From Escherichia coli (GTDB lineage: Bacteria > Pseudomonadota > Gammaproteobacteria > Enterobacterales > Enterobacteriaceae): DNA of 64,000 nt. Made by a program: the position numbers and the translations under genes. Of the stretch, positions 8,606 through 55,369 are shown one piece after another (position 1 is the first letter of the stretch; each line of letters starts with the position of its first letter). The stretch is from the NCBI RefSeq assembly GCF_003334785.1, contig NZ_QOWV01000012.1, one strand, 5' to 3'. Below the pieces are notes generated by a model that saw only the letters and a list, made by a program, of their open reading frames with translations, did no database searches and was not told the DNA's origin.

Positions 8606-8628
8606 TGATCGTTTCCAGCAACCTTTAC

Positions 8629-8871
8629 TTACTCACTTCGAACTGCATCCTCGTAGACTGTTCCACTACAATAATCGAAAAGGCGCGGATGTCCATTCAG
8701 GTATCCCGCTAATACGTATAGCAATAACAATGGCTTATGCGGCGCGCGCTGTTCACCCTTGTGCCAGATTTTTATATTGGCAATTGCCTGCTGTAGCGAT
8801 TTACTGGAAGCTATTGATATCCCTAGCAGTGAAATAATTGCGATCATGCTCGCAAATTTTCTGCTGTTCAA
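8629..8871 (-). CDS. hypothetical protein (80 aa) with RAPHKPLLLLYVLAGYLNGHPRLFDY motif; possibly N-terminal part of a frameshifted gene
   Basis: ORF in track, divergent from the HNH gene; followed 24 bp downstream by a second ORF in another frame. Confidence 0.3.
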   Translation of the reverse strand: MNSRKFASMIAIISLLGISIASSKSLQQAIANIKIWHKGEQRAPHKPLLLLYVLAGYLNGHPRLFDYCSGTVYEDAVRSE

Positions 8872-8950
8872 GCCTGCAAGTGAAGATATATTACCTTGAT
8901 CTCATTTGTTTTTTTGCTGCCTGTTCTGAGAACGTATAAGGACATTCTCC

Positions 8951-9601
8951 ATGAATAAACTCCCTGATCATCTTCCGCGGCGGTATATCATCGAAGCTAT
9001 CCATTTATGGGATGCGGGAGAAACTCATCAGTTCCAGCCTGCGCGGTTGTATGAGATTGAATATCATGGCCGACGTTACCCCTCGAAGGCGATTGCTGGC
9101 ATCGCAGCGACATTGATGACGGGGACGCAATTTACCCCTGCGGATTTCACCGGCGGAATAAAATCTAAATGTGTCAAGCTACTCATAGAGCAGGGATTTC
9201 ATATTCATCTGGATAAAGCCGCTGCGGCTCCCATAGCCGACGTTCTGTTCCCGGATGAGTTGCCGTCGCAGGAGACATACCTTGAAGGTGCGGCGATAAA
9301 GGTGACAGTAAACCGCTATGAACGCGATAAAAAGGCCCGAGATAAAGCGGTCGAACATCATGGATGCCAGTGCAACGTATGCGGTGTTGATCTGGTGAAG
9401 ATCTATGGTGATATCGCTGAAGGCTTTATCCATGTGCATCACCTGGTGCCGCTGTCAGCCATTAAAGAGGATTACCAGCTGGATCCAGTTAATGATTTGC
9501 TGCCTGTGTACCCTAATTGCCATGCGATGTTGCACCGACGCAAACCACCGTTTACGCCGGAGCAGTTAAAAGCGCTGATGGATGCGAATAAATCAAATTA
9601 A
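8951..9601 (+). CDS. HNH endonuclease with an extra N-terminal domain (type IV restriction-like)
   Basis: C-terminal HHGCQCNVCG...FIHVHHLVPLS...NDLLPVYPNCHAMLHRR is a canonical HNH (C-x2-C, HH, N, C-x2-H) motif; about 120 aa of unrelated N-terminal sequence; AAGGA Shine-Dalgarno upstream of ATG. Confidence 0.7.
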   Translation: MNKLPDHLPRRYIIEAIHLWDAGETHQFQPARLYEIEYHGRRYPSKAIAGIAATLMTGTQFTPADFTGGIKSKCVKLLIEQGFHIHLDKAAAAPIADVLFPDELPSQETYLEGAAIKVTVNRYERDKKARDKAVEHHGCQCNVCGVDLVKIYGDIAEGFIHVHHLVPLSAIKEDYQLDPVNDLLPVYPNCHAMLHRRKPPFTPEQLKALMDANKSN

Positions 9602-9608
9602 TGAACGC

Positions 9609-10589
9609 TCACCTTTCGCGCCAAAACTGCAAAATTGCTTCTACAAACTTGTCAGAAATAATCCCCCGACGGGCTGCCGTGCTGAAATGACTGCTTCGCA
9701 GTGCCGTCGTCCAGTTCTCCGGTGACCGGTACGCTGAACCGTAATATCCCGTGCTTAAATCGTCCGGGTCTTCATCAGGCGCGTTCGTCAGTCCTCTTTC
9801 ACCTTGTTGCTGGAAGTCGACGAAAATAATATTGGCTAAAACATTATTTTGATAATTGCCATAAATAACTTCATACGCATGAGGGAAATTTTCTTTCCAG
9901 TACCAGGTGGTATCGCCGCAAAACCACGGTGCGTCAGTAATATTATTAAGCTGAGAATGGTATTGTTTTAGATCCCTACGAAAGGCTTCAACCATATGAT
10001 TAAAGTGTTGAGGGTGTGACGCGTAGTCACTGGTCATTAAGTCAAATTCGCCTTGCATCCAGCATACGCCGAGGAATTTGTTATGCGGATTTTTTGCCAG
10101 TGCGGCTCGCGTTCTGCTGACTAAATCCTGGTATAGCGGAGTATCCGTTCCCCAACGACAAGCATCATGGCTGGCTCCGTGCCGTTCTGAATATGTCCCT
10201 TCGCTGCCCGCGGTAAAAGCCGATCCGCCACGGCAACACGGAACGATGAGAACCCCTGCATTATCAGGAATAAAGGGCAGTAATTTCCGTGCTATATGCA
10301 GTGCCTGGCCAACGGTGCCGTACTGTGTTTGATGATTCGTTGCCAGAGGATGGTGATAACCCTGCATATCCTGAACATCGTGTGGGCAGTGAGTCAGTGG
10401 AATCATGTCGTTAAAGTGACATGGCGGGCCTCCGGGATGCGTATGCGCAAATCTCGCTAATTGTTTGATTCTGGGATGAGGCGCATCTTCCCTGTCCGGT
10501 AATGGCAGTCCTTCGCCATACGCCATGGCATTAGACTGACCAGCAATGGTAAGAATATAGTAATAATCGGGCGATATTATTGCGTTCAT
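9609..10589 (-). CDS. nanS: 9-O-acetyl-N-acetylneuraminate esterase NanS
   Basis: MNAIISPDYYYILTIAGQSNAMAYGEG... matches NanS (YjhS); start at the internal Met giving 326 aa; synteny with nanM and nanC. Confidence 0.85.
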   Translation of the reverse strand: MNAIISPDYYYILTIAGQSNAMAYGEGLPLPDREDAPHPRIKQLARFAHTHPGGPPCHFNDMIPLTHCPHDVQDMQGYHHPLATNHQTQYGTVGQALHIARKLLPFIPDNAGVLIVPCCRGGSAFTAGSEGTYSERHGASHDACRWGTDTPLYQDLVSRTRAALAKNPHNKFLGVCWMQGEFDLMTSDYASHPQHFNHMVEAFRRDLKQYHSQLNNITDAPWFCGDTTWYWKENFPHAYEVIYGNYQNNVLANIIFVDFQQQGERGLTNAPDEDPDDLSTGYYGSAYRSPENWTTALRSSHFSTAARRGIISDKFVEAILQFWRER

Positions 10590-10653
10590 ATAAATTTCGC
10601 GTAATTGAAATGACAAATTGATAGCAGGGCCCCTTTACCGGGGCCCTGAAGCG

Positions 10654-11760
10654 TTAGTTTTGTACTGTAACTTTATTATCCTTCACAGAGATCAAAACTG
10701 AATCCGTCACCGCTTTGCCGCCTGCAGTTTCACCGCCAATAATCAATAGACTATTATTCCAGGGCAATGATACTCCGTAGGCCCGACCTTGCGATAATTC
10801 ACCCGATTTATCCCATTTCCCGTTATGCCAAAGATGAATATCAGTGCTATATGATTTTTTCAGGCCTTCATGCGCATAGTTCTTACCGTTCTGGTAATTT
10901 TCTCGTGAACCTTTGAATCCGGCCCCTCCGGCAAATATAAGAGAATCATTGCTTATCCCCGCAAAACCGCCAGCTACGCCATCTGGTGATGAGACGGGAG
11001 CAAGCTTATTCCATTTTAAATTATTACCGGTGAAATCAAGTTCAAATACGGCATCCGTTCGCAATCCTGGTTTGGCTTCGCCATTAATAAGCCAGGTTTT
11101 ATCACCTTTATTCACAACCGCCGCACCAGCCGTTCCGTACCAGGGCGATTCGCCAGCGTAACTCCATTGCTGTGTTGAGGGATCAAAAGACAACAGAAAC
11201 TTATTGAAAAAATAATCTTCTGCTTTTTTGTCAAAATAGTGAGCGTTGATTTTATCTATAGCGGTTGAATCTTTTCCAGCCTCGTTGAGATCTTCAAAAT
11301 AGCCATTGAAGATATTCTGGTTAACACCGCCAGTAACATAAGCCTTGCCGTTGTGTACAAAAGTTACATGACCCGCCATGCCCATCGGTGCGTGCGACAT
11401 CAATTTAACCCAACTATTGGTTTTGGGGTTGTATTTGTGTACGTCATTAAATACCTGAGTCAAGCCCTCGCTGTTTTTGCCAATGCCGCCAAACACATAC
11501 AGATTGCCATCAATAAATGCCGAGGTTGCTTGATCTCTTGGTCCACCAGGGAATGCAGCTAACGCTTTCCATTTTTTATCTTTGGCCTGTGTATCCAGCT
11601 TGTACCATGCCGTACCTGCGCTACCTAAACCAATGTAGACAGTGTCGTTATCAATTGCTCCGGTACCACTTTTAAATGGCACAGGAGTTTCCGGTAATAC
11701 AGACGCGTTTGCGGCAAATGAAGCCATCATGATAGCAAGCGCCGTTATTGTTTTATTCAT
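10654..11760 (-). CDS. nanM: N-acetylneuraminate mutarotase NanM (kelch repeats)
   Basis: MNKTITALAIMMASFAANASVLPETPVPFKSGTG... signal peptide plus kelch repeats; 368 aa from the internal Met. Confidence 0.85.
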   Translation of the reverse strand: MNKTITALAIMMASFAANASVLPETPVPFKSGTGAIDNDTVYIGLGSAGTAWYKLDTQAKDKKWKALAAFPGGPRDQATSAFIDGNLYVFGGIGKNSEGLTQVFNDVHKYNPKTNSWVKLMSHAPMGMAGHVTFVHNGKAYVTGGVNQNIFNGYFEDLNEAGKDSTAIDKINAHYFDKKAEDYFFNKFLLSFDPSTQQWSYAGESPWYGTAGAAVVNKGDKTWLINGEAKPGLRTDAVFELDFTGNNLKWNKLAPVSSPDGVAGGFAGISNDSLIFAGGAGFKGSRENYQNGKNYAHEGLKKSYSTDIHLWHNGKWDKSGELSQGRAYGVSLPWNNSLLIIGGETAGGKAVTDSVLISVKDNKVTVQN

Positions 11761-11779
11761 TGTGACTGTCTCCTGTCTA

Positions 11780-12496
11780 CTACAGTTTAAATGACACACC
11801 AATGCGATAACTGTTTTCCGATAAATTATCTCTGCCGTTGTAAACACCCTGACGGTCAAGGTAGTCATATTCTATGTATGGCGTAATATCCGGCGTCATA
11901 TGGTATTGTAGAACAAATGCATTTTCCGTCGCCCATTTCTTATGGTTTGCATAGCGATAATCGTTCTGTTTGCTGTATAGCGTCGTTTGCCATGCGAAGG
12001 TGAAATCACTATTAATATGGTAAGTGACATATCCATCCCAACGATGAACGTTATCACGAGACATATCACCGGATAAGTCTTGTTGTCGGTAAGCTTTCCA
12101 GTCGTAACGATAGCGAATGCCAAAATTAAGATCTTTTGTCGCGTCCCAGGACAGTTTTACGTAGGGTCCGTAGCGTGTGCCGTTGCTGCTAAAATGCGTT
12201 AACATTCCCGGGCGCACCGTCCATTGATCATCAAGTTTAATCGCGTAATTAACATCAACCTGAACATCATTGAGTGCGGCATTTTCCTTTTTATTATCAT
12301 GAATGGTATTCCAGGTATTACTTTCCATACTTGCCCACCATCCATTTTGCCATCCCTCACTGACTTTGAGTCGAGTCTCATAGGCGTGGCTTCCACTACG
12401 ATATCCACCACGTACGTCCAGTGTCGCAGCTTGAGAAATTAATGGTGACGAAAAGCACAGTAATAATACGCCAGAAAGTATTTTAGCCTTTTTCAT
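11780..12496 (-). CDS. nanC: N-acetylneuraminic acid outer-membrane channel NanC (KdgM family)
   Basis: MKKAKILSGVLLLCFSSPLISQA... signal peptide, beta-barrel-like sequence ending ...YRIGVSFKL; 238 aa. Confidence 0.85.
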   Translation of the reverse strand: MKKAKILSGVLLLCFSSPLISQAATLDVRGGYRSGSHAYETRLKVSEGWQNGWWASMESNTWNTIHDNKKENAALNDVQVDVNYAIKLDDQWTVRPGMLTHFSSNGTRYGPYVKLSWDATKDLNFGIRYRYDWKAYRQQDLSGDMSRDNVHRWDGYVTYHINSDFTFAWQTTLYSKQNDYRYANHKKWATENAFVLQYHMTPDITPYIEYDYLDRQGVYNGRDNLSENSYRIGVSFKL

Positions 12497-15628: not shown

Positions 15629-15675
15629 TTTAACTCATTGATAATAAAGTTAAAAAACAAATAAATACAAGACAA

Positions 15676-15989
15676 TTGGGGCCATTTTGACTCATAGAGG
15701 AAAGCATCGCGCACAAACTTTTTCAGTTTATTTGTTGGCTTAATATTCTATTGTTATCTTTATTTATAGATTTTTATATTGCATGAGGTGGTTTTTGGAG
15801 AGAAGAATGAGGAAGATGCGTCGAGCCACAGAAACGTTAGCTTTACATATAGCGGAGGTGATGTGAAATTAATTTACAAGAGAAATAATTTACATATCAA
15901 ACAGTTAGATGCTTTTTGTCGTTTTTTAATATTTTTATGCTTGAGAAAAAATACGTAACTTATTTATGATATGGACAGTTTGGCCCCAA
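15676..15989. promoter_or_regulatory. fimS: fimS invertible phase-variation switch (314 bp) bounded by 9-bp inverted repeats, captured in the fimA-ON orientation
   Basis: TTGGGGCCA at 15676-15684 and TGGCCCCAA at 15981-15989; promoter-like TTGAGA / TATGATA inside the element pointing toward fimA. Confidence 0.85.
15944..15971 (+). promoter_or_regulatory. fimA sigma70 promoter inside fimS (-35 TTGAGA, -10 TATGATA)
   Basis: Hexamers read directly from sequence, about 18 bp apart, immediately inside the right inverted repeat and oriented toward fimA. Confidence 0.55.
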
Positions 15990-16108
15990 ATGTTTCATCT
16001 TTTAGGGGAAAACTGTGCAGTGTTGGCAGTCAAACTCGTTGACAAAACAAAGTGTACAGAACGACTGCCCATGTCGATTTAGAAATAGTTTTTTTAAAGG
16101 AAAGCAGC

Positions 16109-40840: not shown

Positions 40841-41785
40841 ATGACAAACTTCACGACCAGCACGCCGCATGACGCATTGTTTAAATCTTTTCTCACGCAT
40901 CCGGATACCGCGCGGGATTTTATGGAGATCCACTTACCTAAAGATTTACGTGAACTGTGCGATCTCGACAGCTTAAAACTTGAATCCGCCAGCTTTGTCG
41001 ATGAAAAATTGCGGGCGCTACATTCCGATATTCTGTGGTCGGTAAAGACCCGCGAAGGCGATGGCTATATTTATGTGGTGATTGAACATCAGAGCCGCGA
41101 GGATATTCATATGGCCTTTCGCCTGATGCGCTATTCTATGGCGGTGATGCAGCGCCATATCGAGCATGATAAACGCCAGCCGCTACCGCTGGTCATCCCG
41201 ATGCTGTTTTATCACGGTAGCCGTAGTCCTTACCCCTGGTCCCTGTGCTGGCTGGACGAATTTGCCGACCCGACTACCGCACGGAAAGTTTATACCGCCG
41301 CGTTCCCGCTGGTGGATGTCACTGTCGTGCCAGACGACGAGATTGTGCAGCACCGCAGAGTCGCTCTGTTGGAGTTGATCCAAAAGCATATTCGCCAGCG
41401 CGATCTGATGGAGCTTATCGATCAACTGGCAGTATTACTGGTTACAGGGTGCGCTAATGACAGCCAGATAACCGCGCTGTTAAATTACATTTTACTGACT
41501 GGCGATGAAGCGCGTTTTAAGGCGTTTATCAGCGAACTTACCAGGCGAATGCCACACCACAGGGAGCGAATAATGACAATTGCAGAGCGAATTCATAATG
41601 ATGGATGGCTGTTGGGAAGGGAGAAAGGGAAAGAAGAAGGGGAACAGCGCCTCCTCCGATTGTTGTTGCAGAATGGGGCAGATCCTGAATGGATACAAAA
41701 GATTACCGGACTTTCGGCAGAGCAAATGCAGGCATTAGAGCAGCCCTTGCCTGAAAGCAAGCGCGAACCATGGATCGAATACTAA
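40841..41785 (+). CDS. rpnD: recombination-promoting nuclease RpnD (YhgA-like PD-(D/E)XK family), intact 314-aa frame
   Basis: Single uninterrupted [69 protein letters not shown]...; YhgA-like family features. Confidence 0.75.
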
Positions 41786-43616: not shown

Positions 43617-43781
43617 ATGGAATTTCACGAAAACAAAGCCAAAACGCCGTTTATCGGCCTAGTGCAACTCTGGCAGGAGGTGAGGCGTTGGCGGCGGCAA
43701 ATGCAGACCCGACGAGTGTTACAGCAGATGAGTGATGAACGGTTGAGGGATATCGGGTTACGCAGGGAGGATGTGGAGTGA
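43617..43781 (+). CDS. yjiS: DUF1127 small protein YjiS (54 aa)
   Basis: MEFHENKAKTPFIGLVQLWQEVRRWRRQMQTRRVLQQMSDERLRDIGLRREDVE; GAGGAGG Shine-Dalgarno; below the 60-aa track cutoff, found by manual translation. Confidence 0.8.
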   Translation: MEFHENKAKTPFIGLVQLWQEVRRWRRQMQTRRVLQQMSDERLRDIGLRREDVE

Positions 43782-44277
43782 GGGGGGATATAAATTTATA
43801 TAATAAAACGTTTTTATGTTTTTAAATTAAGTTATAAAAATTTTCCCGAGACTATTCATCAATAGGTATGGAGTGTACAGGAATATCTTCTTCACTAACC
43901 TCTTTAAACTCATGTCGATAATGGTCAAAAAACGCACAGTGATTACTTGTGTTTTTTGACTGACTTTACAACTCTCATTATTCGCTATTGTGAAGTTTCT
44001 CTAATTGTTTTATATCCTGGAAAGTTAAATGTTAGTTACTGCATACTTTTTTATTTTTTGAGATTTATTTTCATTTGAAATTATAAAGTCAGGTGATAAA
44101 TGAGTTGTGATTAATAGATAGTTGATATCATTTTTATCTAAAATTGATTTATGGTGCCGACCTGAAAAATTAGCTATTGCCGCCTGATTAATTATACGAT
44201 ATTTTTAAAGGTTTTCTTTCAAATTAGAAATATTCTGGGGTTTTGTTTTTGTATCTTTTATCTCTAAGGAGCTTGCT

Positions 44278-47043
44278 TTGGGTCAATCAGAATACATTTC
44301 ATGGGTAAAATGTACTTCCTGGCTAAGTAACTTTGTGAATCTTAGAGGGTTGAGACAACCGGATGGCCGTCCTCTTTATGAATATCATGCAACCAATGAT
44401 GAATATAACCAATTAACGCAGCTACTCCGTGCAGTCGGTCAATCACAATCTAATATATGTAATAAGGACTTTGCTGCCTGTTTTGTTCTTTTTTGCTCTG
44501 AGTGGTACCGCAGGGATTATGAACGGCAATGCGGATGGACGTGGGACCCTATATATAAAAAAATAGGGATTTCATTTACCGCCACAGAGCTTGGTACCAT
44601 CGTACCGAAAGGGATGGACGATTACTGGCTGCGCCCAATTCGATTTTATGAATCTGAACGACGCAATTTTCTCGGAACATTATTCAGTGAAGGTGGTTTA
44701 CCTTTCCGGTTACTCAAAGAATCAGACAGTCGCTTTCTGGCTGTTTTCTCCAGGATCCTTGGACAATATGAGCAAGCAAAGCAGTCAGGTTTTTCTGCCC
44801 TTTCGCTGGCAAGAGCCGTCATAGAAAAATTAGCGCTGCCAACTGTTTTTAGCGAAGATACTTCTGTAGAACTTATCAGTCATATGGCTGATAACCTCAA
44901 TTCCTTAGTACTTACTCACAACCTAATAAATCACAAAGAACCAGTACAACAGCTTGATAAGGTTCACCCTACCTGGCGAAGCGAGTTTCCAATACCGTTA
45001 GATGATGAAACAGGAACGCATTTTTTGAATGGACTGCTATGCGCAGCCTCTGTAGAGGCTAAGCCTCGACTACAAAAAAATAAGAGTACGCGTTGCCAAT
45101 TCTATTGGTCAGAAAAGCATCCAGATGAGCTTAGGGCGATAGTATCTCTCCCTGACGAAGTTTCCTTTCCTGTAACAAGCGAGCCGTCAACTACGCGCTT
45201 TGAACTTGCCATTTGTGAAGATGGTGAGGAAGTCTCTGGCCTTGGGCCAGCTTATGCTTCCCTGGAAAACAGACAGGCAACAGTTCGATTACGTAAAAGC
45301 GAAGTGAGATTTGTCAGGCAAAATCCATCGGCAGGTTTGTCGTTAGTGGCTCGTGCTGGAGGGATGATTGTTGGGAGCATTAAACTTGATGACAGTGAAA
45401 TTGCCATTGGTGAGGTGCCGTTAACCTTCATCGTTGATGCAGATCAATGGCTGTTACAGGGACAGGCCTCCTGTAGTGTGCAAAGCAGCGATGTTCTGAT
45501 TGTGCTCCCTCGGGACAATAGTACTGTTGCTGGTTTTGATGGCCAATCGAGTGCAGTAAACGTATTAGGACTTGTCGCTATGACTCTGGCGGTTGCTCTG
45601 CGTCAGGCGCTAGCGGGCGTTCTGGGTATCTCCGGCGCAGAACTCGGCTATTCTGTACGCCCGGTCAGACTGGAGGATGGGCAATCGGTATTAGCCGTTC
45701 AGCTTTATGATGTGATCAGCGGTGGTGCAGGTTTTGCCTCCAGCGCACCGGTACACATTGAAGCTATTTTGCAGGGAATGGTGAAACAGTTAGGTTGCCG
45801 CCATTGTGATACTGCATGTAGTGAATGCCTGCTTGATTCCCAGACTCGCCACGATCACGATTTGCTGGATCGCAAAGCGGCGCTGGCCTGGCTTGGCGAT
45901 GACTTCACGTATTACATCGGTTTACCGGATGAAGAGACATTCTCGCTGCCGGATGCCCGCTACTGCCCTGGCGCTATTGGCGATACGATTCGCCGGGCGA
46001 TTAACGAAGGCGCTGAAAAGCTCACCCTGTGGATGACCGGCGCGCCCAATGAGTGGGATTTATACGCCCGTCAGTTCCGCGCGGCGGTTCAGAGCTATCG
46101 GCTAAAAGACAACGTCGAGGTCGATCTTGTTATACCTGCGGGAGTGGATGACCCGGATCTGTTGTATGAACTATCGCAATTTACTGCGCTGGGTGTGCGG
46201 CTGTGCCATGTTGAACAGGATCTGCAATTGCCGATCGTTGCCCAGGTTACCTTTGCCGATCGCGTGATGACGCTGGCTTCTCGCAGCCAGCAGGCAACGA
46301 TTCCGGGGCCGGAGTGGCACCTGAATGACGAACTGGTGGTGCGTAGTCTCGGTTATAAAACGGTAGAACTGAACGAGTTTATTCTGCCGGCTAAAGCCGC
46401 CAACGCTGTCGAGCGGGTCAAAGACATTCAGATCCACAAACAGTTGAATGGACCACTTTCGCAGTTTGGACAACGCTTCTGGGACGTGCTGTTTAACGAC
46501 CATGAAGAAGCACAGTCACTGATGAATAACACGCGAATTACCGGCGTTCACTATACCGATCGCTATCTGCAAAACCCGGTTGCGCTGGCGTTGTTGGGAT
46601 CAATTCTGAGACCGCTAAAAACAAAGCTGACCGATGGCGCTGAAGTGGCGCTGGATACGCTGTTTAAAGATAAAGATCGCCCCGGTAACCGGCCTTTCCA
46701 TGACTGGATGAGCATAGCGGATTTTCAGGATTTCGCTGATCAGTGGTTTGCTGCTGCGCTGGGCAGGCCGATAGAACTAACGGTGTTCGACTCGCCGCGC
46801 GATATCCCTCACCATCGTAAACTGACGGTGACTTTTGAGGATGGTCAGGTTTTGAAGATCCGCTTCGATCAGGGGATGGGCTACTGGCGTATCAACTTTG
46901 CATCGCAATGGCATTACTTTGACTTCCGCGATGACGTTTCTTTCCAGTTAGTCAAAATGGCTCAGGCCTGCAATGAAGGAAATGTGGCCAACAGCGAAGA
47001 GAGCTGGGCAACGGATGTGCTGGTGGAGGTGAGCGCCTCCTGA
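44278..47043 (+). CDS. orphan 921-aa protein of the immigration-control region; contains GG-x-G plus C-x2-C-x3-C-x2-C motif (DUF1998/MZB-like zinc ribbon); function unknown, candidate defence protein
   Basis: Long uninterrupted ORF; TTG start 6 nt after AAGGAG; motif [13 protein letters not shown]...[34 protein letters not shown] at nt ~45715-45830; occupies the slot where K-12 carries yjiT/yjiV and mcrBC. Confidence 0.8.
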
Positions 47044-47050
47044 TGATGTG

Positions 47051-47082
47051 CCGCTCCCGATGTGGTGTCGGGAGCGTTTTTC
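47051..47082. terminator. intrinsic terminator hairpin between the convergent 921-aa ORF and symE
   Basis: gctcccga-tgtggtg-tcgggagc stem-loop followed by TTTTT on the plus strand. Confidence 0.55.
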
Positions 47083-47085
47083 CAT

Positions 47086-47427
47086 TCAGGCAACTTTCTG
47101 TTTACCGGCAATCACCCCAATAAATTCCTGCACCTGCTTTTGTTTACGCGCCGACAGCTTGCACACCCTGCGCAGCGACTGCATCAGTTCGCTCTCTTCG
47201 GCGGCGGGTGGTTGAGCGGTGAGGACGATGCAGCCTTCCATCACTTTGACATCTACCGCCGTGCCGGTGGCAAAACCGGCGGCTTCCAGCCACTGACCTT
47301 TCAGGGTGATGGCGGGAATATGCGCGTGATCCGGGTAGCGGCTCGCATAACCGACGGTGACATGACGGTTATTTGCCGGAGAGACTTCTGCTTCGAACGG
47401 TTGTGCAATAGAATACGTGTCAGTCAT
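47086..47427 (-). CDS. symE: SOS-induced toxin-like endoribonuclease SymE
   Basis: [74 protein letters not shown]...; 113 aa from the internal Met. Confidence 0.85.
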
Positions 47428-47497
47428 AACTGCTATTCTCCGATAATAGTGATTGTGATGAGCGGTGCGGGTGTGTTGGCGCACATCCGCACCGCGC
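47420..47497 (+). ncRNA. symR: cis-antisense sRNA SymR (position inferred, boundaries approximate)
   Basis: In K-12 SymR is encoded opposite the symE start/5'UTR; here an inverted repeat gcggtgcgg...ccgcaccgc at 47462-47496 lies in the corresponding position. Confidence 0.4.
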
Positions 47498-47503
47498 TAA
47501 ATA

Positions 47504-47521
47504 CCTGGATATATCATCAGT
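47504..47521. promoter_or_regulatory. LexA box of the symE promoter
   Basis: Reverse complement reads CTGATGATATATCCAG (CTG-N10-CAG with AT-rich centre) upstream of symE. Confidence 0.45.
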
Positions 47522-47654
47522 AAATACAGGGAAAGTCCAGCTAAAAATAGAATAAAATGGTCAGTTCCTGGAATGATTTAAATATATTTATGTGAGTTAT
47601 GATTGGCGTGAAATAATAAAAGGCGCACCGGAAAGGTGCGCCAGAAAATAATGA

Positions 47655-48968
47655 TCAGGATTTTTTACGCGAGGCTTTTTTACCTCCGCTGGCTGCGCGT
47701 TCAGCTTTGATTTTTTCCAGCAACGCGGCGGCGCTGTTTTCTCCGCTGATTAATTCCGGGTTTTCGGCCCGCCACTGGGCGGTGAGTTCACCACGGAACG
47801 CTTTTGCCAGGATGGATTGCGTCAGGTTGTTAACGCGGGCTAAGGCGTTGTTGACCTGTTTTTCTATGGTGTCTGCGTAGGCGAAGAGCTGCTCGACGCG
47901 GCGAACGATTTCGTGTTGTTCGGGGAGTGGAGGAACAGTTATTGGGTATGCAATTAATTTCTGTGCATTAATATTTGATTGACTGACCCCATCAGATTTT
48001 ACTGAGTAGCAATATTGCCTCCCCAAAATGCTATTTAAATGGTAGTTAAGATAGTCAGGGTTTAAATCAGGTAAACATTGAACCCTAATCAAATAACCTG
48101 CATAAATAGCTGGTTGCTCTGATTTATATATGGCTGTTTTCCCGACAAGTTCAGGACTATTTGTACGATTGAATAATACATCATTGTACTCAAGTTTATA
48201 CTTTTCAATTTCTATGGTATCTGAAGTATAGACTAGATCCGTCCAGTCCAATTTTCCGCCCTGAAGATTGCCCATTCTTAATACAGGAATGAGTCCTTCT
48301 TTATTAGACTTAGATGACGTTCCATAACTTGGTTTTTTTATAAATTCCCCAAGTTTGCCTTCTATCCACCCAGACAGGCTCGAATTATCTCTCCAGTCTT
48401 CAGTTAGTTTTCCACTTACCGCGGCACCCAGCACCGCCTGACGAAAACGTTTCAGGATTTGTGGGATTTGCTCAAGACGTGCTTTGGTGCTCTCTACCTG
48501 CGCCAGCAGCGTATCGAGTTTTTCAGCGATGATTTTTTGTTCTGAAATTGGAGGAAGTTGTATTTCCCAAGCCTCCATTCCAGCTTTGGTAATATGTGGC
48601 ATTGCCACGCCGTGAGCCGATGCTTTAAGTGCCTCTGTAATATTCAATAATGCATAATAAGCAAATTGCTTATTAAGTGCAGGGGATGTTTCAATCTTCC
48701 AAATATGGTAGTGATAAATTAGTTTATGATCCCACTTCGACCAATATGGACCAAATGTTGCTGACCAAGCATATAGGAGATCATTTTTATAGCAATATTT
48801 ATCTTCCTGTAGCTCTAAGTTGGAATAAAACCATTTATTCCCTCCATTCAAATTTTGAATTCTGAGAATAGGAACACCTTCTGTGAGCATTTCTTCTTTC
48901 TTATATGCTCTGCCATTGATGAGGGTCAAAACATCACCCAACTGGCATATTTGCCAATTTTTACTCAT
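47655..48968 (-). CDS. hsdS: type I restriction-modification specificity subunit HsdS (437 aa, type IA framework, target-recognition domains unlike EcoKI)
   Basis: Conserved central and C-terminal repeats (PPISEQKIIAEKLDTLLAQVE... and PPLPEQHEIVRRVEQLFAYAD...) flank two AT-rich variable domains; ATGA overlap with hsdM. Confidence 0.9.
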   Translation of the reverse strand: MSKNWQICQLGDVLTLINGRAYKKEEMLTEGVPILRIQNLNGGNKWFYSNLELQEDKYCYKNDLLYAWSATFGPYWSKWDHKLIYHYHIWKIETSPALNKQFAYYALLNITEALKASAHGVAMPHITKAGMEAWEIQLPPISEQKIIAEKLDTLLAQVESTKARLEQIPQILKRFRQAVLGAAVSGKLTEDWRDNSSLSGWIEGKLGEFIKKPSYGTSSKSNKEGLIPVLRMGNLQGGKLDWTDLVYTSDTIEIEKYKLEYNDVLFNRTNSPELVGKTAIYKSEQPAIYAGYLIRVQCLPDLNPDYLNYHLNSILGRQYCYSVKSDGVSQSNINAQKLIAYPITVPPLPEQHEIVRRVEQLFAYADTIEKQVNNALARVNNLTQSILAKAFRGELTAQWRAENPELISGENSAAALLEKIKAERAASGGKKASRKKS

Positions 48969-50554
48969 TCCTTCACCCCACCAAACGCTTCTTCCAGCAA
49001 CTGACGCTGTGCATCCGCCTCATCGCTCGCCCCCAGTTCACGCATCAGCGCATCCAGTTCACCCAGCGCCTGTACCAGTTCGCCCATCGCTTCTGCCGCT
49101 AATACATCCGGCTCCGGCAGGTTGTCGGCGTCAATGCTGTCTTTATCTTTCAGCCAGGAGATATCCAGCGAATCGGATTTCGCGGAGCGGATCCACTCGC
49201 GGCTGAACTTGCGCCAGCGGCTGGTAGCCAGATGCTGATCGGTATTTTTGTTCTCTTCGCTGTCGGCAACTTCCGTCTCTTCGGCGTTAAAACTCCATTC
49301 CCCTTCAGTACGCGGGCTTAAGCCGTGGGGATCTTCGCCATACACGCGCTCAAACGGCTGCAAATGCTCGTCGGTAAACGGCGTGCGTTTACCAAAGCTC
49401 GGCATATTGGTCCGCAGGTCGTACACCCACACGTCGTCGGTGCAGTTCTTATCCTGATGCGGGTTCGCCACTGTGCCTTTGGTAAAGAACAGCACGTTGG
49501 TCTTCACGCCCTGCGCGTAAAAAATACCGGTCGGCAGACGCAGAATGGTGTGCAGATGACACTTATCCATCAGGTCACGACGGATGTCGGTGCCTTTGCC
49601 GCCTTCAAACAACACGTTATCTGGCACCACCACCGCCGCACGACCGCCGGGATGCAGCGTTTCGATAATATGCTGCATAAAGCACAGCTGTTTGTTGCTG
49701 GTCGGGTGAACAAAGGTGCGGGTAATGTTGGTGCCTGCGGCGCTGCCAAACGGCGGGTTAGTGGCGACAATATGCGCCTTCGGCAGGTTTTCACCGTCGC
49801 TGCCCAGGGTGTTGCCCAGACGGATTGCGCCGCCGTGGTCGAGGTTGCCTTCAATATCGTGCAGCAGGCAGTTCATCAGCGCCAGACGACGGGTGCCGGG
49901 CACCAGTTCGAGGCCGATAAACGCGCGGTGGATCTGGAAATCCTGTGTGTCGCCATCAAGGTCGTCCAGATCGTTAGTCTGCGACTTAACGTAGCGGTCG
50001 GCTTCAATCAAAAAGCCCGCCGTACCCGCTGCCGGGTCCTGCACCACTTCACGCGGCTGCGGTTTCAGCAGATGAATAATGGTTTTAATCAGCGGACGCG
50101 GGGTGAAGTACTGGCCCGCGCCAGACTTGGTTTCGTTCGCGTTCTTCTGCAACAGCCCTTCGTACATATCGCCGAAGTCATCGCGCGACTTACCGTGCGC
50201 ACCGTTGTACCAGTCCAGTGAATCCATATTGCTGACCAGTTCGGTCAACTGTTTTGGCTGGGTAATGGTGGTGTTGACGTTCTGGAACACCGCCTGCACC
50301 AGCTTTTGATTGTCGGCGCCCAGATGTACCAGCAGGTTACGGTAGAACTGCAACTGCTCCTGACCGATACGGGATTTCAGGTCGTCCCAGCGGTAGCCTT
50401 CCGGCAGGTATTCCGCTTCCTGTCTGGTTTCTTTACACATTTTCAAAAACAGCAGCGAGGCGAGTTCATTGACGTAGTTTTGATAGGAAACGCCGCCATC
50501 GCGCAGGTTGTCGCACAGCTTCCACAGCTTGGCGACCAGATCGTTATTGTTCAT
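48965..50554 (-). CDS. hsdM: type I restriction-modification N6-adenine methyltransferase HsdM
   Basis: 529 aa; NPPF catalytic motif (HIVATNPPFGSAAG); sequence closely matches EcoKI-family HsdM as recalled. Confidence 0.9.
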   Translation of the reverse strand: MNNNDLVAKLWKLCDNLRDGGVSYQNYVNELASLLFLKMCKETRQEAEYLPEGYRWDDLKSRIGQEQLQFYRNLLVHLGADNQKLVQAVFQNVNTTITQPKQLTELVSNMDSLDWYNGAHGKSRDDFGDMYEGLLQKNANETKSGAGQYFTPRPLIKTIIHLLKPQPREVVQDPAAGTAGFLIEADRYVKSQTNDLDDLDGDTQDFQIHRAFIGLELVPGTRRLALMNCLLHDIEGNLDHGGAIRLGNTLGSDGENLPKAHIVATNPPFGSAAGTNITRTFVHPTSNKQLCFMQHIIETLHPGGRAAVVVPDNVLFEGGKGTDIRRDLMDKCHLHTILRLPTGIFYAQGVKTNVLFFTKGTVANPHQDKNCTDDVWVYDLRTNMPSFGKRTPFTDEHLQPFERVYGEDPHGLSPRTEGEWSFNAEETEVADSEENKNTDQHLATSRWRKFSREWIRSAKSDSLDISWLKDKDSIDADNLPEPDVLAAEAMGELVQALGELDALMRELGASDEADAQRQLLEEAFGGVKE

Positions 50555-50639
50555 TGTGAGTTCCGTAAATTAAGCAGCGGCCCAAATTTATTGGGCCGCA
50601 TAAGAATAAATTGCCGAGGGTAATATACACAAAATCATT

Positions 50640-50755
50640 CAGGTTGCATCAAGGCGGCAAGTGAGTGAATCCCCGGGAGCGTACAGAAGTACGTGACCGG
50701 GGTGAACGAGCGCAGCCAACGCAGAGGCAGCCTGAAGGATGAAGTGTATACGTGT
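50640..50755. repeat. ERIC (IRU) intergenic repeat between hsdR and hsdM
   Basis: aagtgagtgaatccccgggagcgtacagaagtacgtgaccggggtgaacgagcgcagccaacgcagag matches the ERIC consensus. Confidence 0.7.
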
Positions 50756-53700
50756 CAGGCCAGCTCGTCCCAGATATAATCGCTGAATTTATCGAGCAGG
50801 TTGTCGAGATTATCGTCAAAGGTTCTTTGCAGCATCGCCTTCCCGCCGCGACGGTGGAAGTTGCCGGTTTTGAAGACATCGTCGTCGAGCACCACTTTCT
50901 CTTTCAGCGCCTGTGCTAAACGATCGAGCCAGCTTAATTGCTCGCTGCTCCAGTCGTTTTCGCCCTTGATGCGCGTCAGCGCGTGATCGACACGTTCCTC
51001 AAACGGTTTCAGCGCATCGCCCACCGCAGCGCGGCGAATATGTCCAATCAACCGGGCGGCAATATCTTCATTACGCGTCTCTTTCCACGCTTTGCGCAGG
51101 GAAGATTCCTCAAAGTGCTGGCGGTCAAACCACTCCTGGAGTTCGACCAGCCCTTTACGGGTGAGATCGCGCGGGCGATTGATCACCGCCTGCAATGCCG
51201 GTTGCGCGTTCGGGGAACGTTGCACCAGCGAGTCAAAGGCTTCGAGGAAATCCTGCGGCGTGTCGTAATCACCGTACAGCGATTTTACGCTCAACACTTC
51301 ATCGTCGATATCGAGGAAGATCGGCGCATCATTCAGGTTATTGATATCAGTTTTCAGCTTTTCCAGGCGGGCGATAAAGCCAGGCAGCTTGTTAAAGACT
51401 TCGGCGCTCCAGTGCGGCCCTTTTTCCCGCAGGCGCGAGGCGAAGCCGTTAAAGCCCACCCCCGCCGCGTCCTGGCATAGCTCATCCAGACGACGCACCT
51501 GTTTATCTATCGTTTCGCTGCGGTCACGGTTAAACGTGGCCAGGCCGATGATGCGCTGGAGCTTCGCCACCAGTTGTTCATGGCTGTGCTCGGCAAAACT
51601 GCGGCCATCCGCTTCGGTGATTTTATAGGTTTCTGAATCGGTAATTTCGTTGACCAGCGTTTGCAGCTCCACCTTAGGACGCACCACCACCGGACGCATG
51701 GTGTCGACGCTCTCCAGCGTGCTGTATATATCGACGCAGTCGAAAATCTTAAAGCTGGTTTTATTCACGTCCGGGCACAAGCGCGTGGCGCGGCCTTTCA
51801 TCTGCTCGTACAGAATACGGCTGCGTACTTTACGCAGGAACACGATGTTACAGATCGACGGAATATCGACGCCGGTCGTCAGCAGGTCGACGGTTACCAC
51901 AATATTGGGCAGCCGCTCTTTATTGAAGCGGGTGATCATGGTCTGCACTTTGCGCGCGTCTTTATCGGCATCACCGGTGATCTTGATTATCGCGTCGTGC
52001 TCCAGTTGCGGATACTTTTTCTTGAACGCGGTACGCAACTCTTCCACCACCATATCGGCATGGGCATTGGTGACGCAGAAGACCAGCGTTTTTTGCGACC
52101 CGGTCGGGTCAAGGTAGTTGGTGAGTTCGTTACAGACGGCGCGGTTAAACGCCGGGATCACCAGGCCACGGTTAAAGTCGGCGACCTCAAAATCCTGATC
52201 GTCTTCCAGGGTGTCGTTGATTACTTCCCCCTGCGGGCTGATGCGCTCTACCTGTTCGCCTTTGGAGAGATAAACACCCTCCTGTGCGTTGCGGGTGGTG
52301 ATCTGAATTGGTGGATCCTGGTCGATCAGAAAACCGTCGATAACCGCGGTACGGTAGGTATAACGGTAAACCGGCTCGCCGAAAATCTGCACCGTATGCA
52401 ACGCCGGGGTGGCGGTGAGGGCGATTTTTATCGCATCGAAGTGATCGAGAATGCGACGGTAGGCAGAGACATAATCCAGCTGGCTGCGGAACTGTAGTTC
52501 GCCTTCGGTCTGCTCTTTATCGAGAATATAGCCGCGATGCGCTTCATCGACGACGATACAGTCGTAACGGGCCACCGGCATCGGTTCATCTGATTGCAGG
52601 GTGCGTTTCACCAGCGACTGTACGGTGGCAACGTGAATTTTGGTGCTGTCTTCCGGGAATTTATCCGTCAGCCCTTTAATGTCGAAAATGCTGTTGAAGG
52701 TGTCGCCGTTAATACGCGTATCTTCAAACGCCCCCAGCGCCTGCTCGCCAAGAGAACGGCGATCCACAAGGAAGAGAATGCGTTTAAAACGCTGGGACTG
52801 GATCAGGCGGAACATCATGGCAATTGCGGTGCGGGTTTTACCGGTACCGGTCGCCATCGCCAGCAGGATCTCTTGTTGACCCTTGACGATTGCCTTTTCC
52901 ACCGCGCGGACGGCATCTTCCTGATAATAACGCAGGCCCAGCTCGCTCATGCCGGGATTATCGGCAAACCACTGATTCTGTTTTTGCGGTTCGCTGCCGA
53001 GCATTTCCAGCAGCTCTTCCGGGCGATGCCACTCGGGTAAGGCTTTCGACATATTGCGGGTATCACGCACGTCGCGATACCAGATGCCACTTTTAGTCTT
53101 CATTGCTGCGCGGTATTCGCGCCCGTTGGTGGAGTAGCAGAAGGGGATTTTAAACCGTTGTTGGCCGCTGGAGTCCTGCCAGCTAGTTTCATACTCCGGC
53201 ACCGCTTCATGCACTTCATCCGGTGAGTAGTGCTCAAGCAAGGTTTCCCGCAGGAAGCCATTATCGAAGCATTTACTGTAGCGATACGACTCATTGAGCT
53301 TGCCGGGAACGTCGATATTTTTACGTTTCGCCTCTACCACCGCGATGGGTTTGAGGCCGACAAACAGCACATAATCCGCAAAGCCCTGTTTACCCGTTTC
53401 ATCTTTCCCGGTCGGCCATTCGGCAATGGCTTTATTGACGCCGGGTTCCGGGCGCGCGCCTTTGGAGAAGCGCAGGGTTTTGCTATCGGCCTGCCAGCCT
53501 GCTTTACGCAGTTGCGCATCAATCAGGAAGCGGCTCTCTTCTTCGCTAAGGTTGAGTGTGCGCTTGATGGCCTGATCGGTAATTTCTTTGTGGTAAGCCT
53601 TACGTTCCTGTTCAGTCTGTTTGGCCAGTTCCGCGTTCTTCTCGGCGAGCTGTGCTTCCAGCGCCGCAAGGCGAGCCTGGGTTTGCGCTTCTGTTTCCTG

Positions 53701-54267
53701 CTGTTTGCCTTCCAGAATAGCGATATAGCCGTTCAGGGCAACCAGCTTCTGCTGTTGCGCTTCGACTTCTGCCTGAGTCTGCGCTTTTTCTCGCACCTGC
53801 TGTTCAAGCTGTTGTTTTAGCGTCAGCACTTCCTGGTGATAGAGGTTCTCGCCACGTTCTGGTAACACAAACACCGGCACCGGGAAGTCATAATCTTTAG
53901 TGACCAGACGGTAGTACCAGACAGCCAGGCGGAACCCGAGTCGCAGGCACATCTGGGCATCGTCGAGATCGTTGTGATATTCGTGCACCGCCTGGTTACC
54001 AATGCGGCGTAATTTGTGAAATACAGAGAGAATGTTGTCATCAACGAAGGCGATTTTGCCGAGTTCGCGCAGGAGATCGTGTTGATTCTCACAAGGGGGG
54101 ATGTTGAGTAACAGACCAAGATGTTTCGCTGTGGCTTCGCCAAACATACGCATTTTAATTAGCGTCGTATTGGGATCATCCGGGTAGTTATTTTCCGCCG
54201 CACAGGCGATGGCATAAGTGAAGTCGTTGACGCCCTTCAGGAATTCGAAGTTGGATTTATTCATCAT
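50755..54267 (-). CDS. hsdR: type I restriction endonuclease/translocase HsdR
   Basis: 1170 aa; Walker A (AMATGTGKTRTA) and DEAH-like (VVDEAHRG) helicase motifs; operon context. Confidence 0.9.
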   Translation of the reverse strand: MMNKSNFEFLKGVNDFTYAIACAAENNYPDDPNTTLIKMRMFGEATAKHLGLLLNIPPCENQHDLLRELGKIAFVDDNILSVFHKLRRIGNQAVHEYHNDLDDAQMCLRLGFRLAVWYYRLVTKDYDFPVPVFVLPERGENLYHQEVLTLKQQLEQQVREKAQTQAEVEAQQQKLVALNGYIAILEGKQQETEAQTQARLAALEAQLAEKNAELAKQTEQERKAYHKEITDQAIKRTLNLSEEESRFLIDAQLRKAGWQADSKTLRFSKGARPEPGVNKAIAEWPTGKDETGKQGFADYVLFVGLKPIAVVEAKRKNIDVPGKLNESYRYSKCFDNGFLRETLLEHYSPDEVHEAVPEYETSWQDSSGQQRFKIPFCYSTNGREYRAAMKTKSGIWYRDVRDTRNMSKALPEWHRPEELLEMLGSEPQKQNQWFADNPGMSELGLRYYQEDAVRAVEKAIVKGQQEILLAMATGTGKTRTAIAMMFRLIQSQRFKRILFLVDRRSLGEQALGAFEDTRINGDTFNSIFDIKGLTDKFPEDSTKIHVATVQSLVKRTLQSDEPMPVARYDCIVVDEAHRGYILDKEQTEGELQFRSQLDYVSAYRRILDHFDAIKIALTATPALHTVQIFGEPVYRYTYRTAVIDGFLIDQDPPIQITTRNAQEGVYLSKGEQVERISPQGEVINDTLEDDQDFEVADFNRGLVIPAFNRAVCNELTNYLDPTGSQKTLVFCVTNAHADMVVEELRTAFKKKYPQLEHDAIIKITGDADKDARKVQTMITRFNKERLPNIVVTVDLLTTGVDIPSICNIVFLRKVRSRILYEQMKGRATRLCPDVNKTSFKIFDCVDIYSTLESVDTMRPVVVRPKVELQTLVNEITDSETYKITEADGRSFAEHSHEQLVAKLQRIIGLATFNRDRSETIDKQVRRLDELCQDAAGVGFNGFASRLREKGPHWSAEVFNKLPGFIARLEKLKTDINNLNDAPIFLDIDDEVLSVKSLYGDYDTPQDFLEAFDSLVQRSPNAQPALQAVINRPRDLTRKGLVELQEWFDRQHFEESSLRKAWKETRNEDIAARLIGHIRRAAVGDALKPFEERVDHALTRIKGENDWSSEQLSWLDRLAQALKEKVVLDDDVFKTGNFHRRGGKAMLQRTFDDNLDNLLDKFSDYIWDELA

Positions 54268-54454
54268 TGTTATTAATCCATTGCTGTGTGGGCCTGTCCA
54301 AATATTTAAGGCCCATAACGTCTTATCTTAGCTTTCTGTACCTTTCCGGACAATGACCGGAGTCACAGCAACTGACTCATTTCTAACGTGTTCGTCTATT
54401 TTGGTAGTGTTATAGTAGCCGAAAAACATCTACCTGATTCTGCAAGGATGTACT

Positions 54455-55369
54455 ATGACGGTTCCTACCTATGACAAATTTATTGAACCTGTTCTGCGTT
54501 ATCTGGCGACAAAACCGGAAGGTGCAGCCGCGCGTGATGTTCATGAGGCTGCCGCGGATGCATTAGGACTGGATGACAGCCAGCGAGCGAAAGTCATTAC
54601 CAGCGGACAACTTGTTTATAAAAATCGTGCAGGCTGGGCACATGACCGTTTAAAACGTGCCGGGTTGTCGCAAAGTTTGTCGCGTGGCAAATGGTGCCTG
54701 ACTCCTGCGGGTTTTGACTGGGTTGCGTCTCATCCCCAGCCAATGACGGAGCAGGAGACGAACCATCTGGCCTTCGATTTTGTGAATGTCAAACTTAAGT
54801 CACGGCCGGATGCCGTCGATTTAGATCCGAAAGCCGACTCTCCCGATCATGAAGAACTAGCAAAGAGCAGCCCGGACGATCGGTTAGATCAGGCGCTAAA
54901 AGAGCTTCGTGATGCGGTGGCTGATGAGGTTCTGGAAAACTTATTGCAGGTTTCTCCTTCGCGCTTTGAAGTCATTGTTCTGGATGTTTTGCATCGCCTG
55001 GGGTATGGCGGCCACCGTGATGATTTGCAGCGTGTTGGCGGTACTGGAGATGGTGGCATCGATGGTGTGATATCGCTTGATAAACTTGGCCTGGAGAAAG
55101 TTTATGTTCAGGCAAAACGTTGGCAGAACACTGTAGGCAGGCCAGAATTACAGGCATTTTACGGCGCACTGGCTGGGCAAAAGGCGAAACGTGGGGTGTT
55201 TATTACCACTTCTGGATTTACGTCTCAGGCGCGTGACTTTGCTCAATCCGTCGAGGGTATGGTGTTGGTTGATGGGGAACGCCTGGTGCACTTAATGATC
55301 GAAAACGAAGTAGGGGTTTCTTCACGTTTGTTGAAGGTGCCGAAACTGGATATGGACTATTTTGAGTGA
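54455..55369 (+). CDS. mrr: type IV modification-dependent restriction endonuclease Mrr
   Basis: 304 aa; MTVPTYDKFIEPVLRYLATKPEGAAARDVHEAAADALGL... winged-helix N-terminus plus Mrr catalytic core (VYVQAKRW). Confidence 0.9.
   Translation: MTVPTYDKFIEPVLRYLATKPEGAAARDVHEAAADALGLDDSQRAKVITSGQLVYKNRAGWAHDRLKRAGLSQSLSRGKWCLTPAGFDWVASHPQPMTEQETNHLAFDFVNVKLKSRPDAVDLDPKADSPDHEELAKSSPDDRLDQALKELRDAVADEVLENLLQVSPSRFEVIVLDVLHRLGYGGHRDDLQRVGGTGDGGIDGVISLDKLGLEKVYVQAKRWQNTVGRPELQAFYGALAGQKAKRGVFITTSGFTSQARDFAQSVEGMVLVDGERLVHLMIENEVGVSSRLLKVPKLDMDYFE

Follow-up and report, generated by a model that had tools for sequence, protein, structure and literature searches.

An immigration control region haplotype of Escherichia coli with a mosaic HsdS, an empty mcrBC slot and a putative DruH::DruE relic

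Gene content of the locus

The DNA considered here is a window of 64 kb (the whole stretch that was analysed), of which the segment 39400-59500 is 99.99% identical to the corresponding region of E. coli NCTC9087. The gene order yjiS, 921-aa open reading frame (ORF), symE, hsdS, hsdM, hsdR, mrr, reported in the initial annotation of this DNA, is recovered in full, including the position and the size of each gene. The genes are the following:

43617-43781, plus strand: yjiS (DUF1127), a conserved gene bordering the variable segment on its left, as annotated by RefSeq in the identical locus of NCTC9087; 92.6% identical to K-12 YjiS
44278-47043, plus strand: 921-aa fusion ORF, in frame and open throughout
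47086-47427, minus strand: symE, type I toxin / endoribonuclease; NCBIfam equivalog NF010128, 180 bits versus a cut-off of 132; 94.7% identical to K-12 SymE
47422-47498, plus strand: symR, antisense antitoxin sRNA; Rfam RF01809, full length, 89.5 bits versus a gathering score of 61
47655-48968, minus strand: hsdS, 437 aa (WP_000042302.1); product 44% identical to K-12 HsdS
48965-50554, minus strand: hsdM, 529 aa
50755-54267, minus strand: hsdR, 1170 aa; NCBIfam NF008521, 1741 bits
54455-55369, plus strand: mrr, type IV modification-dependent endonuclease, 304 aa; 99.7% identical to K-12 Mrr

The window is colinear with K-12 (96.8% identity) over a stretch reaching from hsdM to yjiA and btsT, and the hsd genes occupy the allelic position beside mrr. 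The symE ORF together with the overlapping antisense symR sRNA constitutes a SymE/SymR type I toxin-antitoxin pair. As a whole, the region represents a natural haplotype, known in kind, of the immigration control region (ICR) of E. coli; the strains that carry it include several NCTC serotype reference strains, enterotoxigenic E. coli (ETEC) and poultry isolates. In what follows, the genes present, their sequence identities, the borders of the mosaic, the breakpoints of the deletion and the frequencies in the population are direct observations.

The type IA restriction-modification genes

The original criteria for the EcoKI family were complementation, hybridisation and the cross-reaction of antibodies. 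The initial description of HsdM and HsdR as near-identical to this family is fully justified: HsdM shows 97.0% identity to its EcoKI counterpart (529 of 529 aa aligned) and HsdR 98.6% (1170 of 1170 aa aligned). HsdS likewise has the type IA framework ascribed to it, with two variable target-recognition domains (TRDs) split by a conserved central region and followed by a conserved C-terminal region (84% and 96% identity to EcoKI, respectively), and the locus lies between symE and mrr, the allelic ICR position. With the EcoKI genes (hsdRMS) of K-12 it shares the chromosomal locus, the order symE-hsdS-hsdM-hsdR-mrr, the HsdS framework and the 4-nt overlap of the hsdM stop codon with the hsdS start. 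In contrast, the EcoKI HsdS consists of 464 aa and starts with MSAGKLPEGW, a sequence that is missing from the 437-aa protein encoded here, and both TRDs are different.

In such a system, the M2S1 methylase would methylate one adenine in each half-site of a bipartite target, and DNA without this m6A mark would be subject to ATP-dependent restriction by the R2M2S1 complex. The enzymes are probably active, as far as can be judged from gene structure. The alternative, namely a silent hsd system (r- or r-m-) that would persist as an inactive relic in the way of the adjoining Druantia genes, appears improbable. In its favour, the same island does decay, as indicated by the DruH::DruE deletion described below and by the split hsdS of strain FDAARGOS_1337, and at 1.4-3% divergence from K-12 inactivating point mutations in HsdR or HsdM are possible that would be invisible to sequence alone. 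However, all three hsd genes are of full length and free of frameshifts, the hsdM-hsdS overlap is retained, and the exact HsdS sequence is kept on at least 1000 contigs. Furthermore, codons 143-437 of hsdS differ from the allele of strain UTI89 by 26 synonymous versus 4 non-synonymous codon differences and are therefore under purifying selection.

The mosaic specificity subunit and its predicted target

Type I specificity is set by the two TRDs of HsdS, and ICR cassettes are swapped among E. coli strains. The hsdS gene of the window can be subdivided as follows:

48543-48968, minus strand: TRD1 (codons 1-142), an uncommon domain in E. coli; identity to the TRD1s of EcoKI and EcoUTI89I 15-18%, weak match to the EcoBI TRD1
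48393-48542, minus strand: central conserved region, codons 143-192; Eco646I-type homology stops at its 5' edge
47934-48392, minus strand: TRD2, codons 193-345, corresponding to the TRD2 of Eco646I/EcoUTI89I, with predicted half-site CTTC; 151 of 152 residues identical to UTI89 HsdS
47655-47933, minus strand: C-terminal type IA framework, codons 346-437; 99% identical to EcoUTI89I

The proposal of the initial annotation that the variable domains are AT-rich and not those of EcoKI is borne out by the low identity of TRD1 (15%) and TRD2 (24%) to EcoKI and by a G+C content of 39-42% in the variable part of hsdS versus 54-58% in hsdM and hsdR. The TRDs match neither the K-12 nor the B HsdS, so that the specificity subunit of this type IA system is neither that of EcoKI nor that of EcoBI; since both TRDs are unlike EcoKI, the target should not be AAC(N6)GTGC. 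While HsdS indeed differs from EcoKI, it is not wholly new, inasmuch as TRD2, the central region and the C-terminal region are those of Eco646I/EcoUTI89I (found in UTI89 and ST95 strains): codons 143-437 show ~99% protein and ~95-97% DNA identity, whereas TRD1 is unrelated (18% identity). The DNA homology to ST95-type alleles stops at window position 48542. Judging from these alignments, HsdS is a recombinant in which an uncommon TRD1 precedes the Eco646I/EcoUTI89I allele from the central region onward.

A sensitive DNA search found TRD1 in 58 of 5426 complete E. coli genomes, exclusively as near-identical copies (at least 99% identity), with no K-12 or B strain among the matches and no characterised allele linked to it. 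The exact protein WP_000042302.1 is encoded in 55 of these 5426 genomes. The TRD1 cassette also occurs in HsdS proteins of Salmonella and Pectobacteriaceae; examples of proteins sharing TRD1 come from Salmonella (P0117) and from E. coli (P0114). Shuffling of the two domains is evident in the databases, where TRD1 is paired with at least five other TRD2s, and TRD2 with at least nine other TRD1s, including those of EcoKI and EcoBI.

By the type IA convention, TRD1 provides a 3-bp half-site and TRD2 a 4-5-bp half-site, and type I TRDs with a common half-site are normally clear homologues. The target of EcoUTI89I (prototype Eco646I) is CCA(N7)CTTC, as has been verified in assays of the methylome, by deletion and by transformation (PMC8287963; PMC2490747). 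Going by the above convention, CTTC rather than CCA would belong to the C-terminal TRD, and, because TRD2, the central region and the C-terminal region are shared with Eco646I/EcoUTI89I, the CTTC half-site can be predicted for the enzyme described here. The predicted target would then begin with the TRD1 half-site and end with CTTC, the two being separated by roughly 7 nt (6-8 nt, an extrapolated length); the TRD1 half-site is most likely not AAC, TGA or CCA. In EcoKI, EcoBI, EcoDI and Eco646I, the methylated positions of the two half-sites lie at a distance of 9 nt; on this pattern, the adenine read by TRD1 would be expected 8 nt upstream of the C of CTTC (GAAG in the complementary strand), with a spacer of N6-N7 according to where in its half-site that adenine stands. 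Unrelated TRD sequences may, in principle, read one and the same half-site, in which case the enzyme would be an isoschizomer of a classical enzyme despite its different TRD1, for instance with TRD1 reading CCA in the manner of Eco646I. This seems very unlikely given the homology that is normal for TRDs with a common half-site, against which TRD1 shows only 18% identity to the UTI89 TRD1, 15% to the EcoKI TRD1 and a weak match to that of EcoBI. Thus, although TRD2 is equivalent to that of the prototype (151 of 152 residues), the enzyme is not filed as an Eco646I/EcoUTI89I isoschizomer, owing to the 18% identity of TRD1. This combination of TRD1 and TRD2 may represent a type I specificity without prior experimental characterisation. 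A full-text literature search for WP_000042302.1 returned no mention, and searches for motifs ending in CTTC (N7CTTC, NNNNNNNCTTC, GAAGN7) returned only Eco646I/UTI89, other genera and arbitrary-PCR primers.

The 921-aa open reading frame

The origin of the 921-aa ORF, overlooked in the initial annotation, becomes apparent from its two parts and the junction between them:

44278-45572, plus strand: N-terminal 431 codons of DruH (YjiT family), the 5' part of the fusion; PADLOC DruH3 (PDLC00049), E=3.5e-214, protein residues 1-437 on profile positions 1-437 of 1100
45571-45573, plus strand: deletion junction with 1 bp overlap, frame kept; 6,881 bp are gone (positions 5123-12003 of the ET220 locus L009, with intact druH-druE)
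45572-47043, plus strand: C-terminal ~490 codons of DruE (MrfA Zn-binding module and C-terminal region), the 3' part; PADLOC DruE3 (PDLC00037), E=1.7e-129, protein residues 432-918 on profile positions 1564-2054 of 2055

The DruH part also matches the NCBIfam family NF038336 (YjiT_fam) and is 97% identical to residues 1-435 of K-12 YjiT, whereas the DruE part is colinear with ET220 druE (L009 12004-13508). Residues 438-518 of the fusion correspond to the Pfam domain MZB (PF09369), the only Pfam domain found; the SF2 helicase core is absent. By its sequence, the ORF is an in-frame DruH(1-431)::DruE(1625-2114) relic of a Druantia type III system. A 6.9-kb illegitimate deletion at 1 bp of microhomology joined DruH codon 431 to DruE codon 1625, taking away the C-terminal two-thirds of DruH and the entire DruE helicase core. 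Neither full-length DruH (~1100 aa) nor full-length DruE (~2050-2100 aa) is thus encoded in the window, and, with these parts removed, the Druantia III defence was probably lost.

Strain ET220 has an intact ICR with the order yjiS-druH(1096 aa)-druE(2114 aa)-mcrC-mcrB-symE-hsdSMR-mrr; its flanks are colinear with the window at 94-97% identity, but in the window 6.9 kb of druHE and the 2.6-kb mcrBC cassette are missing, and hsdS is a different one. The yjiT and yjiV pseudogenes of K-12, located at the same yjiS-symE position, derive from the same parents, druH and druE, also degraded by internal deletion. The breakpoints, however, are different: K-12 has two separate fragments along with mcrBC, whereas here a single 6,881-bp deletion left a single ORF. 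In UTI89, the slot beside symE is occupied by GmrSD-type genes rather than by Druantia remnants, and in strain 120899 an intact druE adjoins the same hsdS allele, without mcrBC. The Druantia remnant of FDAARGOS_1337 was considered as an intermediate of the deletion seen in the window and rejected: compared with the window, its druH part is 114 bp shorter and its druE part 1.8 kb longer, so that it stems from an independent deletion. The fusion junction itself is uninterrupted in 8 complete genomes; further strains have the junction but with the ORF interrupted by insertion sequences (IS600, IS30 and IS3 in related strains, including RM10410 and Z1323CEC0018).

Could the fusion nevertheless be a functional, helicase-less single-chain defence or toxin protein, composed of a part of the proposed Druantia sensor, the Zn module and the PLD nuclease region? 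DruH's N-terminal region has been proposed to be the infection sensor, and the C-terminal region of DruE bears PLD nuclease domains (PMC13192584); the fusion retains part of the former together with the latter and is open over all 921 codons. Phages blocked by Druantia III in that study include T3 and Bas37. Nonetheless, such a function is very improbable. An in-frame outcome is expected by chance for one deletion in three, the protein would have to do without the SF2 helicase core and ~665 residues of DruH, and insertion sequences strike the ORF in related strains. Moreover, other members of the haplotype carry independent, different Druantia lesions, and the analogous remnants of K-12 are annotated as pseudogenes.

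The empty mcrBC slot

Two short features separate the end of the DruE remnant from symE:

47053-47075, no strand assigned: hairpin rich in G+C that follows the stop codon of druE, GCTCCCGATGTGGTGTCGGGAGC; the alignment shows it to be conserved in K-12
47077-47089, no strand assigned: 13-nt segment, containing the symE stop codon, in place of the 2.6-kb mcrC-mcrB cassette of K-12, BL21 and ET220, from alignments

The initial annotation had noted nothing resembling McrB or McrC between yjiS and symE, and the same holds for the whole 64-kb window, in which a tblastn search with the K-12 proteins (E<=1e-3) found no homologue in any frame, i.e. neither a McrB AAA+ GTPase gene nor a McrC nuclease gene. 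That mcrBC is truly present but concealed by an assembly or collapse artefact, a possibility the initial annotation itself had raised, can be dismissed as extremely improbable, because 60 complete genomes, each assembled independently, have the junction of the druE 3' end and symE in nearly identical form and without interruption, the identity to NCTC9087 extends across this junction, and no McrB or McrC fragment occurs in the window.

The mcrBC-less condition is the majority state in E. coli and applies to roughly 90% of its genomes: a megablast census of 5426 complete genomes, which would miss homologues below ~85% nucleotide identity, detected K-12-type mcrBC in only 597 (435 of them at 99% identity to K-12 or more). 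In K-12, mcrBC is flanked by two similar hairpins. Of these, the left one is retained in the window together with 13 unique nucleotides and without any remnant of the cassette, so that a never-filled site and a clean deletion look alike; as to the loss of mcrBC by recombination between the flanking hairpins, the data favour neither side. In either case, the druE-symE slot, occupied by mcrBC in K-12, B and ET220, is empty here while Mrr remains, and, with the slot empty, no McrBC attack on m5C- or hm5C-containing DNA would be expected from this locus.

Implications

Taken together, the locus is best explained as a complete type IA system with a recombinant HsdS, next to an empty mcrBC slot and a DruH::DruE relic of a lost Druantia III system, a reading to which we assign a probability of about 0.88. 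It illustrates two well-documented processes in the ICR, namely the exchange of hsdS TRDs via the central region and the repeated, independent erosion of Druantia III. The value of these observations is mainly practical and descriptive, and no new question is opened by them. In strains with this haplotype, McrBC should be no obstacle to m5C-modified DNA, and, as predicted from the TRDs of HsdS, DNA prepared in K-12 or B hosts should be restricted at a site that differs from those of EcoKI and EcoBI.

Gene content of the locus

The gene order proposed in the initial annotation for this immigration control region (ICR), from yjiS to mrr, is borne out by the ORF map and by the RefSeq annotation of strain NCTC9087, which is 99.99% identical to window 39400-59500; the sRNA in the following list comes from Rfam.

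43617-43781, yjiS
44278-47043, 921-aa ORF
47086-47427, symE
47422-47498, symR antitoxin sRNA
47655-48968, hsdS (437 aa)
48965-50554, hsdM
50755-54267, hsdR
54455-55369, mrr

HsdM and HsdR are, as claimed, near-identical to those of EcoKI, the type IA enzyme of K-12 (97.0% and 98.6%); the identity to K-12 is 99.7% for Mrr, 94.7% for SymE and 44% for HsdS. hsdS is AT-rich in its variable part (39-42% G+C, vs 54-58% in hsdM and hsdR). At window 40841-41785, an intact 314-aa ORF, likewise found in NCTC9087, encodes an Rpn-family recombination-promoting nuclease; in K-12, the corresponding gene, rpnD, carries a pseudogene annotation.

Mosaic HsdS and its predicted specificity

The window HsdS was aligned with the K-12 (EcoKI) and UTI89 (EcoUTI89I) proteins, and identity was counted segment by segment.

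Identity of the window HsdS to EcoKI and EcoUTI89I, by segment
Target-recognition domain 1 (TRD1): EcoKI 15%; EcoUTI89I 18%
Central region: EcoKI 84%; EcoUTI89I 90%
TRD2: EcoKI 24%; EcoUTI89I 99.3% (151/152)
C-terminal region: EcoKI 96%; EcoUTI89I 99%

Thus, the framework is conserved and neither TRD is that of EcoKI, which supports the proposed non-EcoKI type IA specificity. The EcoBI TRDs, taken from the BL21 hsdS that is split by IS1, match the window HsdS weakly outside the framework regions. The UTI89 protein (WP_001272440.1) is a member of the Eco646I group, with a TRD2 near-identical to that of the window but a different TRD1. At the DNA level, homology to the ST95/UTI89-type hsdS allele extends from the 3' end of hsdS up to window 48542, where the central conserved region borders on TRD1; hsdS is a mosaic. 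Codons 143-437 differ from this allele by 26 synonymous and 4 non-synonymous changes, the pattern expected of a functional, selected cassette.

In type IA enzymes, as established with hybrids, the N-terminal TRD specifies a 3-bp half-site and the C-terminal TRD a 4-5-bp half-site; by this rule, the CTTC of the EcoUTI89I site is assigned to TRD2. This site, CCA(N7)CTTC, was established by SMRT methylome analysis, hsdSMR deletion and transformation assays (PMC8287963), and the same site is given for Eco646I, the prototype of EcoUTI89I (PMC2490747). Hence the window TRD2 is predicted to read CTTC, with TRD1 giving a different first half-site. In our reading of the sites in PMC2490747, the methylated positions are 9 nt apart in EcoKI, EcoBI, EcoDI and Eco646I; given this spacing, the spacer in the predicted site should be about 7, its exact length depending on the place of the methylated adenine in the TRD1 half-site.

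TRD1 is rare in E. coli: sensitive blastn found it in 58 of 5426 complete genomes, always at ≥99% identity, and detected no diverged relatives there. In a large protein database, it is paired with at least five other TRD2s, including in E. coli and Salmonella, and a Pectobacteriaceae genome carries a full-length homologue (85% identity). The CTTC-type TRD2, in turn, occurs together with nine or more other TRD1s, among them the EcoKI and EcoBI domains; all this is textbook TRD shuffling. The literature, the 5426 E. coli genomes and the contigs of TRD1-sharing proteins yielded no link of TRD1 to an enzyme of known specificity. Two natural hybrids with the CTTC-type TRD2, the database proteins P0113 (EcoKI TRD1) and P0105 (EcoBI TRD1), would predict the sites AAC(N)CTTC and TGA(N)CTTC, respectively, in other enterobacteria.

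The exact 437-aa HsdS (WP_000042302.1) is found on at least 1000 contigs and in 55 of the 5426 complete genomes, its carriers including NCTC9087, NCTC9100, NCTC9038, human and porcine ETEC, and poultry isolates, so this is an ordinary ICR haplotype, already catalogued. In FDAARGOS_1337 (L007 6989-8301), the same allele is present as two ORFs (392 aa and 50 aa) owing to a 1-nt length difference, a probable knockout of the specificity subunit in a reference isolate.

Absence of mcrBC

As the initial annotation held, nothing resembling McrB or McrC lies between yjiS and symE: tblastn with the K-12 proteins gave no match within the whole 64 kb. An assembly artefact is excluded, since the junction of the druE 3' end with symE is uninterrupted in 60 genomes. 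Such absence is the rule: of 5426 complete genomes, only 597 have mcrBC of the K-12 type, and 435 of these match K-12 at ≥99% identity, a level that points to K-12 derivatives. Where ET220 and K-12 have a 2,614-bp mcrBC cassette, the window has 13 nt (47077-47089), within which the symE stop codon falls and where alignment with ET220 and K-12 revealed no cassette remnant; either mcrBC was deleted from this haplotype or it was never inserted. Reviews have described the ICR as a hypervariable defence island where other systems, GmrSD among them, can take the place of mcrBC (PMC12707154), exactly the situation in UTI89. The K-12 cassette is flanked by two similar G+C-rich hairpins, GCTCCCG...CGGGAGC (L003, the K-12 locus, about 7860-7890 and 10440-10500). 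After each comes a stretch, loosely similar between the two, that runs up to the stop codon of a convergent gene; of the hairpins themselves, the window has just the left one (47053-47075). These hairpins may be cassette boundaries or simply bidirectional terminators.

A Druantia III deletion fusion

PADLOC matches residues 1-437 of the 921-aa ORF to positions 1-437 of the 1100 of DruH (E=3.5e-214), and residues 432-918 to positions 1564-2054 of the 2055 of DruE (E=1.7e-129). NCBIfam assigns the N-terminus to the YjiT family, and Pfam detects only an MrfA Zn-binding domain (438-518). According to a recent preprint (PMC13192584), DruE is the effector, a helicase-nuclease, and DruH, of the YjiT family, is the sensor. 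Compared with the intact ET220 arrangement, yjiS-druH(1096 aa)-druE(2114 aa)-mcrC-mcrB-symE-hsdSMR-mrr, the window lacks 6,881 bp (L009, the ET220 locus, 5123-12003), with the joint at window 45572, where one base is shared and the frame is kept. About 665 DruH residues and the entire SF2 helicase core of DruE are gone. The junction is uninterrupted in 8 genomes; in further genomes that have it, IS600, IS30 or IS3 is inserted within the ORF. Druantia was also damaged independently in the same hsdS haplotype: FDAARGOS_1337 carries an internal deletion distinct from that of the window; in strain 120899, druE is intact, and the annotated druH is only 580 aa long and lies immediately downstream of the gene for an IS621 transposase. 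In view of the lost parts, the IS insertions and these independent lesions, we take the 921-aa ORF for a pseudogene-like relic of the kind that yjiT and yjiV represent in K-12; it is very improbable that it encodes a functional neo-protein. Between yjiS and the start of druH, the intergenic DNA (window 43750-44250; 29-32% G+C, ~97% identity with K-12) is presumably the promoter and regulatory region of druH.

Other features of the window and outcome

Between fimE and fimA, 322 bp (window 15672-15993) stand in the opposite orientation to NCTC9087, an assembly that is otherwise 99.99% identical; the position matches that of fimS, the phase switch of type 1 fimbriae, so the switch was caught in opposite states in the two assemblies. 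A further patch of eroded defence or mobile genes lies upstream of nan and fim, at window about 8660-9600 (annotated from NCTC9087, L015 32192-33128). Here an HNH endonuclease gene adjoins a truncated one for a restriction endonuclease that binds phosphorothioated DNA, and next to both is a degraded CP4-like element with IS fragments and a toxin-antitoxin pair, CbtA/YeeU.

Taken together, the initially annotated ICR variant is real and its interpretation is supported; to this, the present analysis adds a predicted CTTC half-site, the mosaic make-up of hsdS, and the finding that the 921-aa ORF is a fusion created by a deletion in Druantia III.
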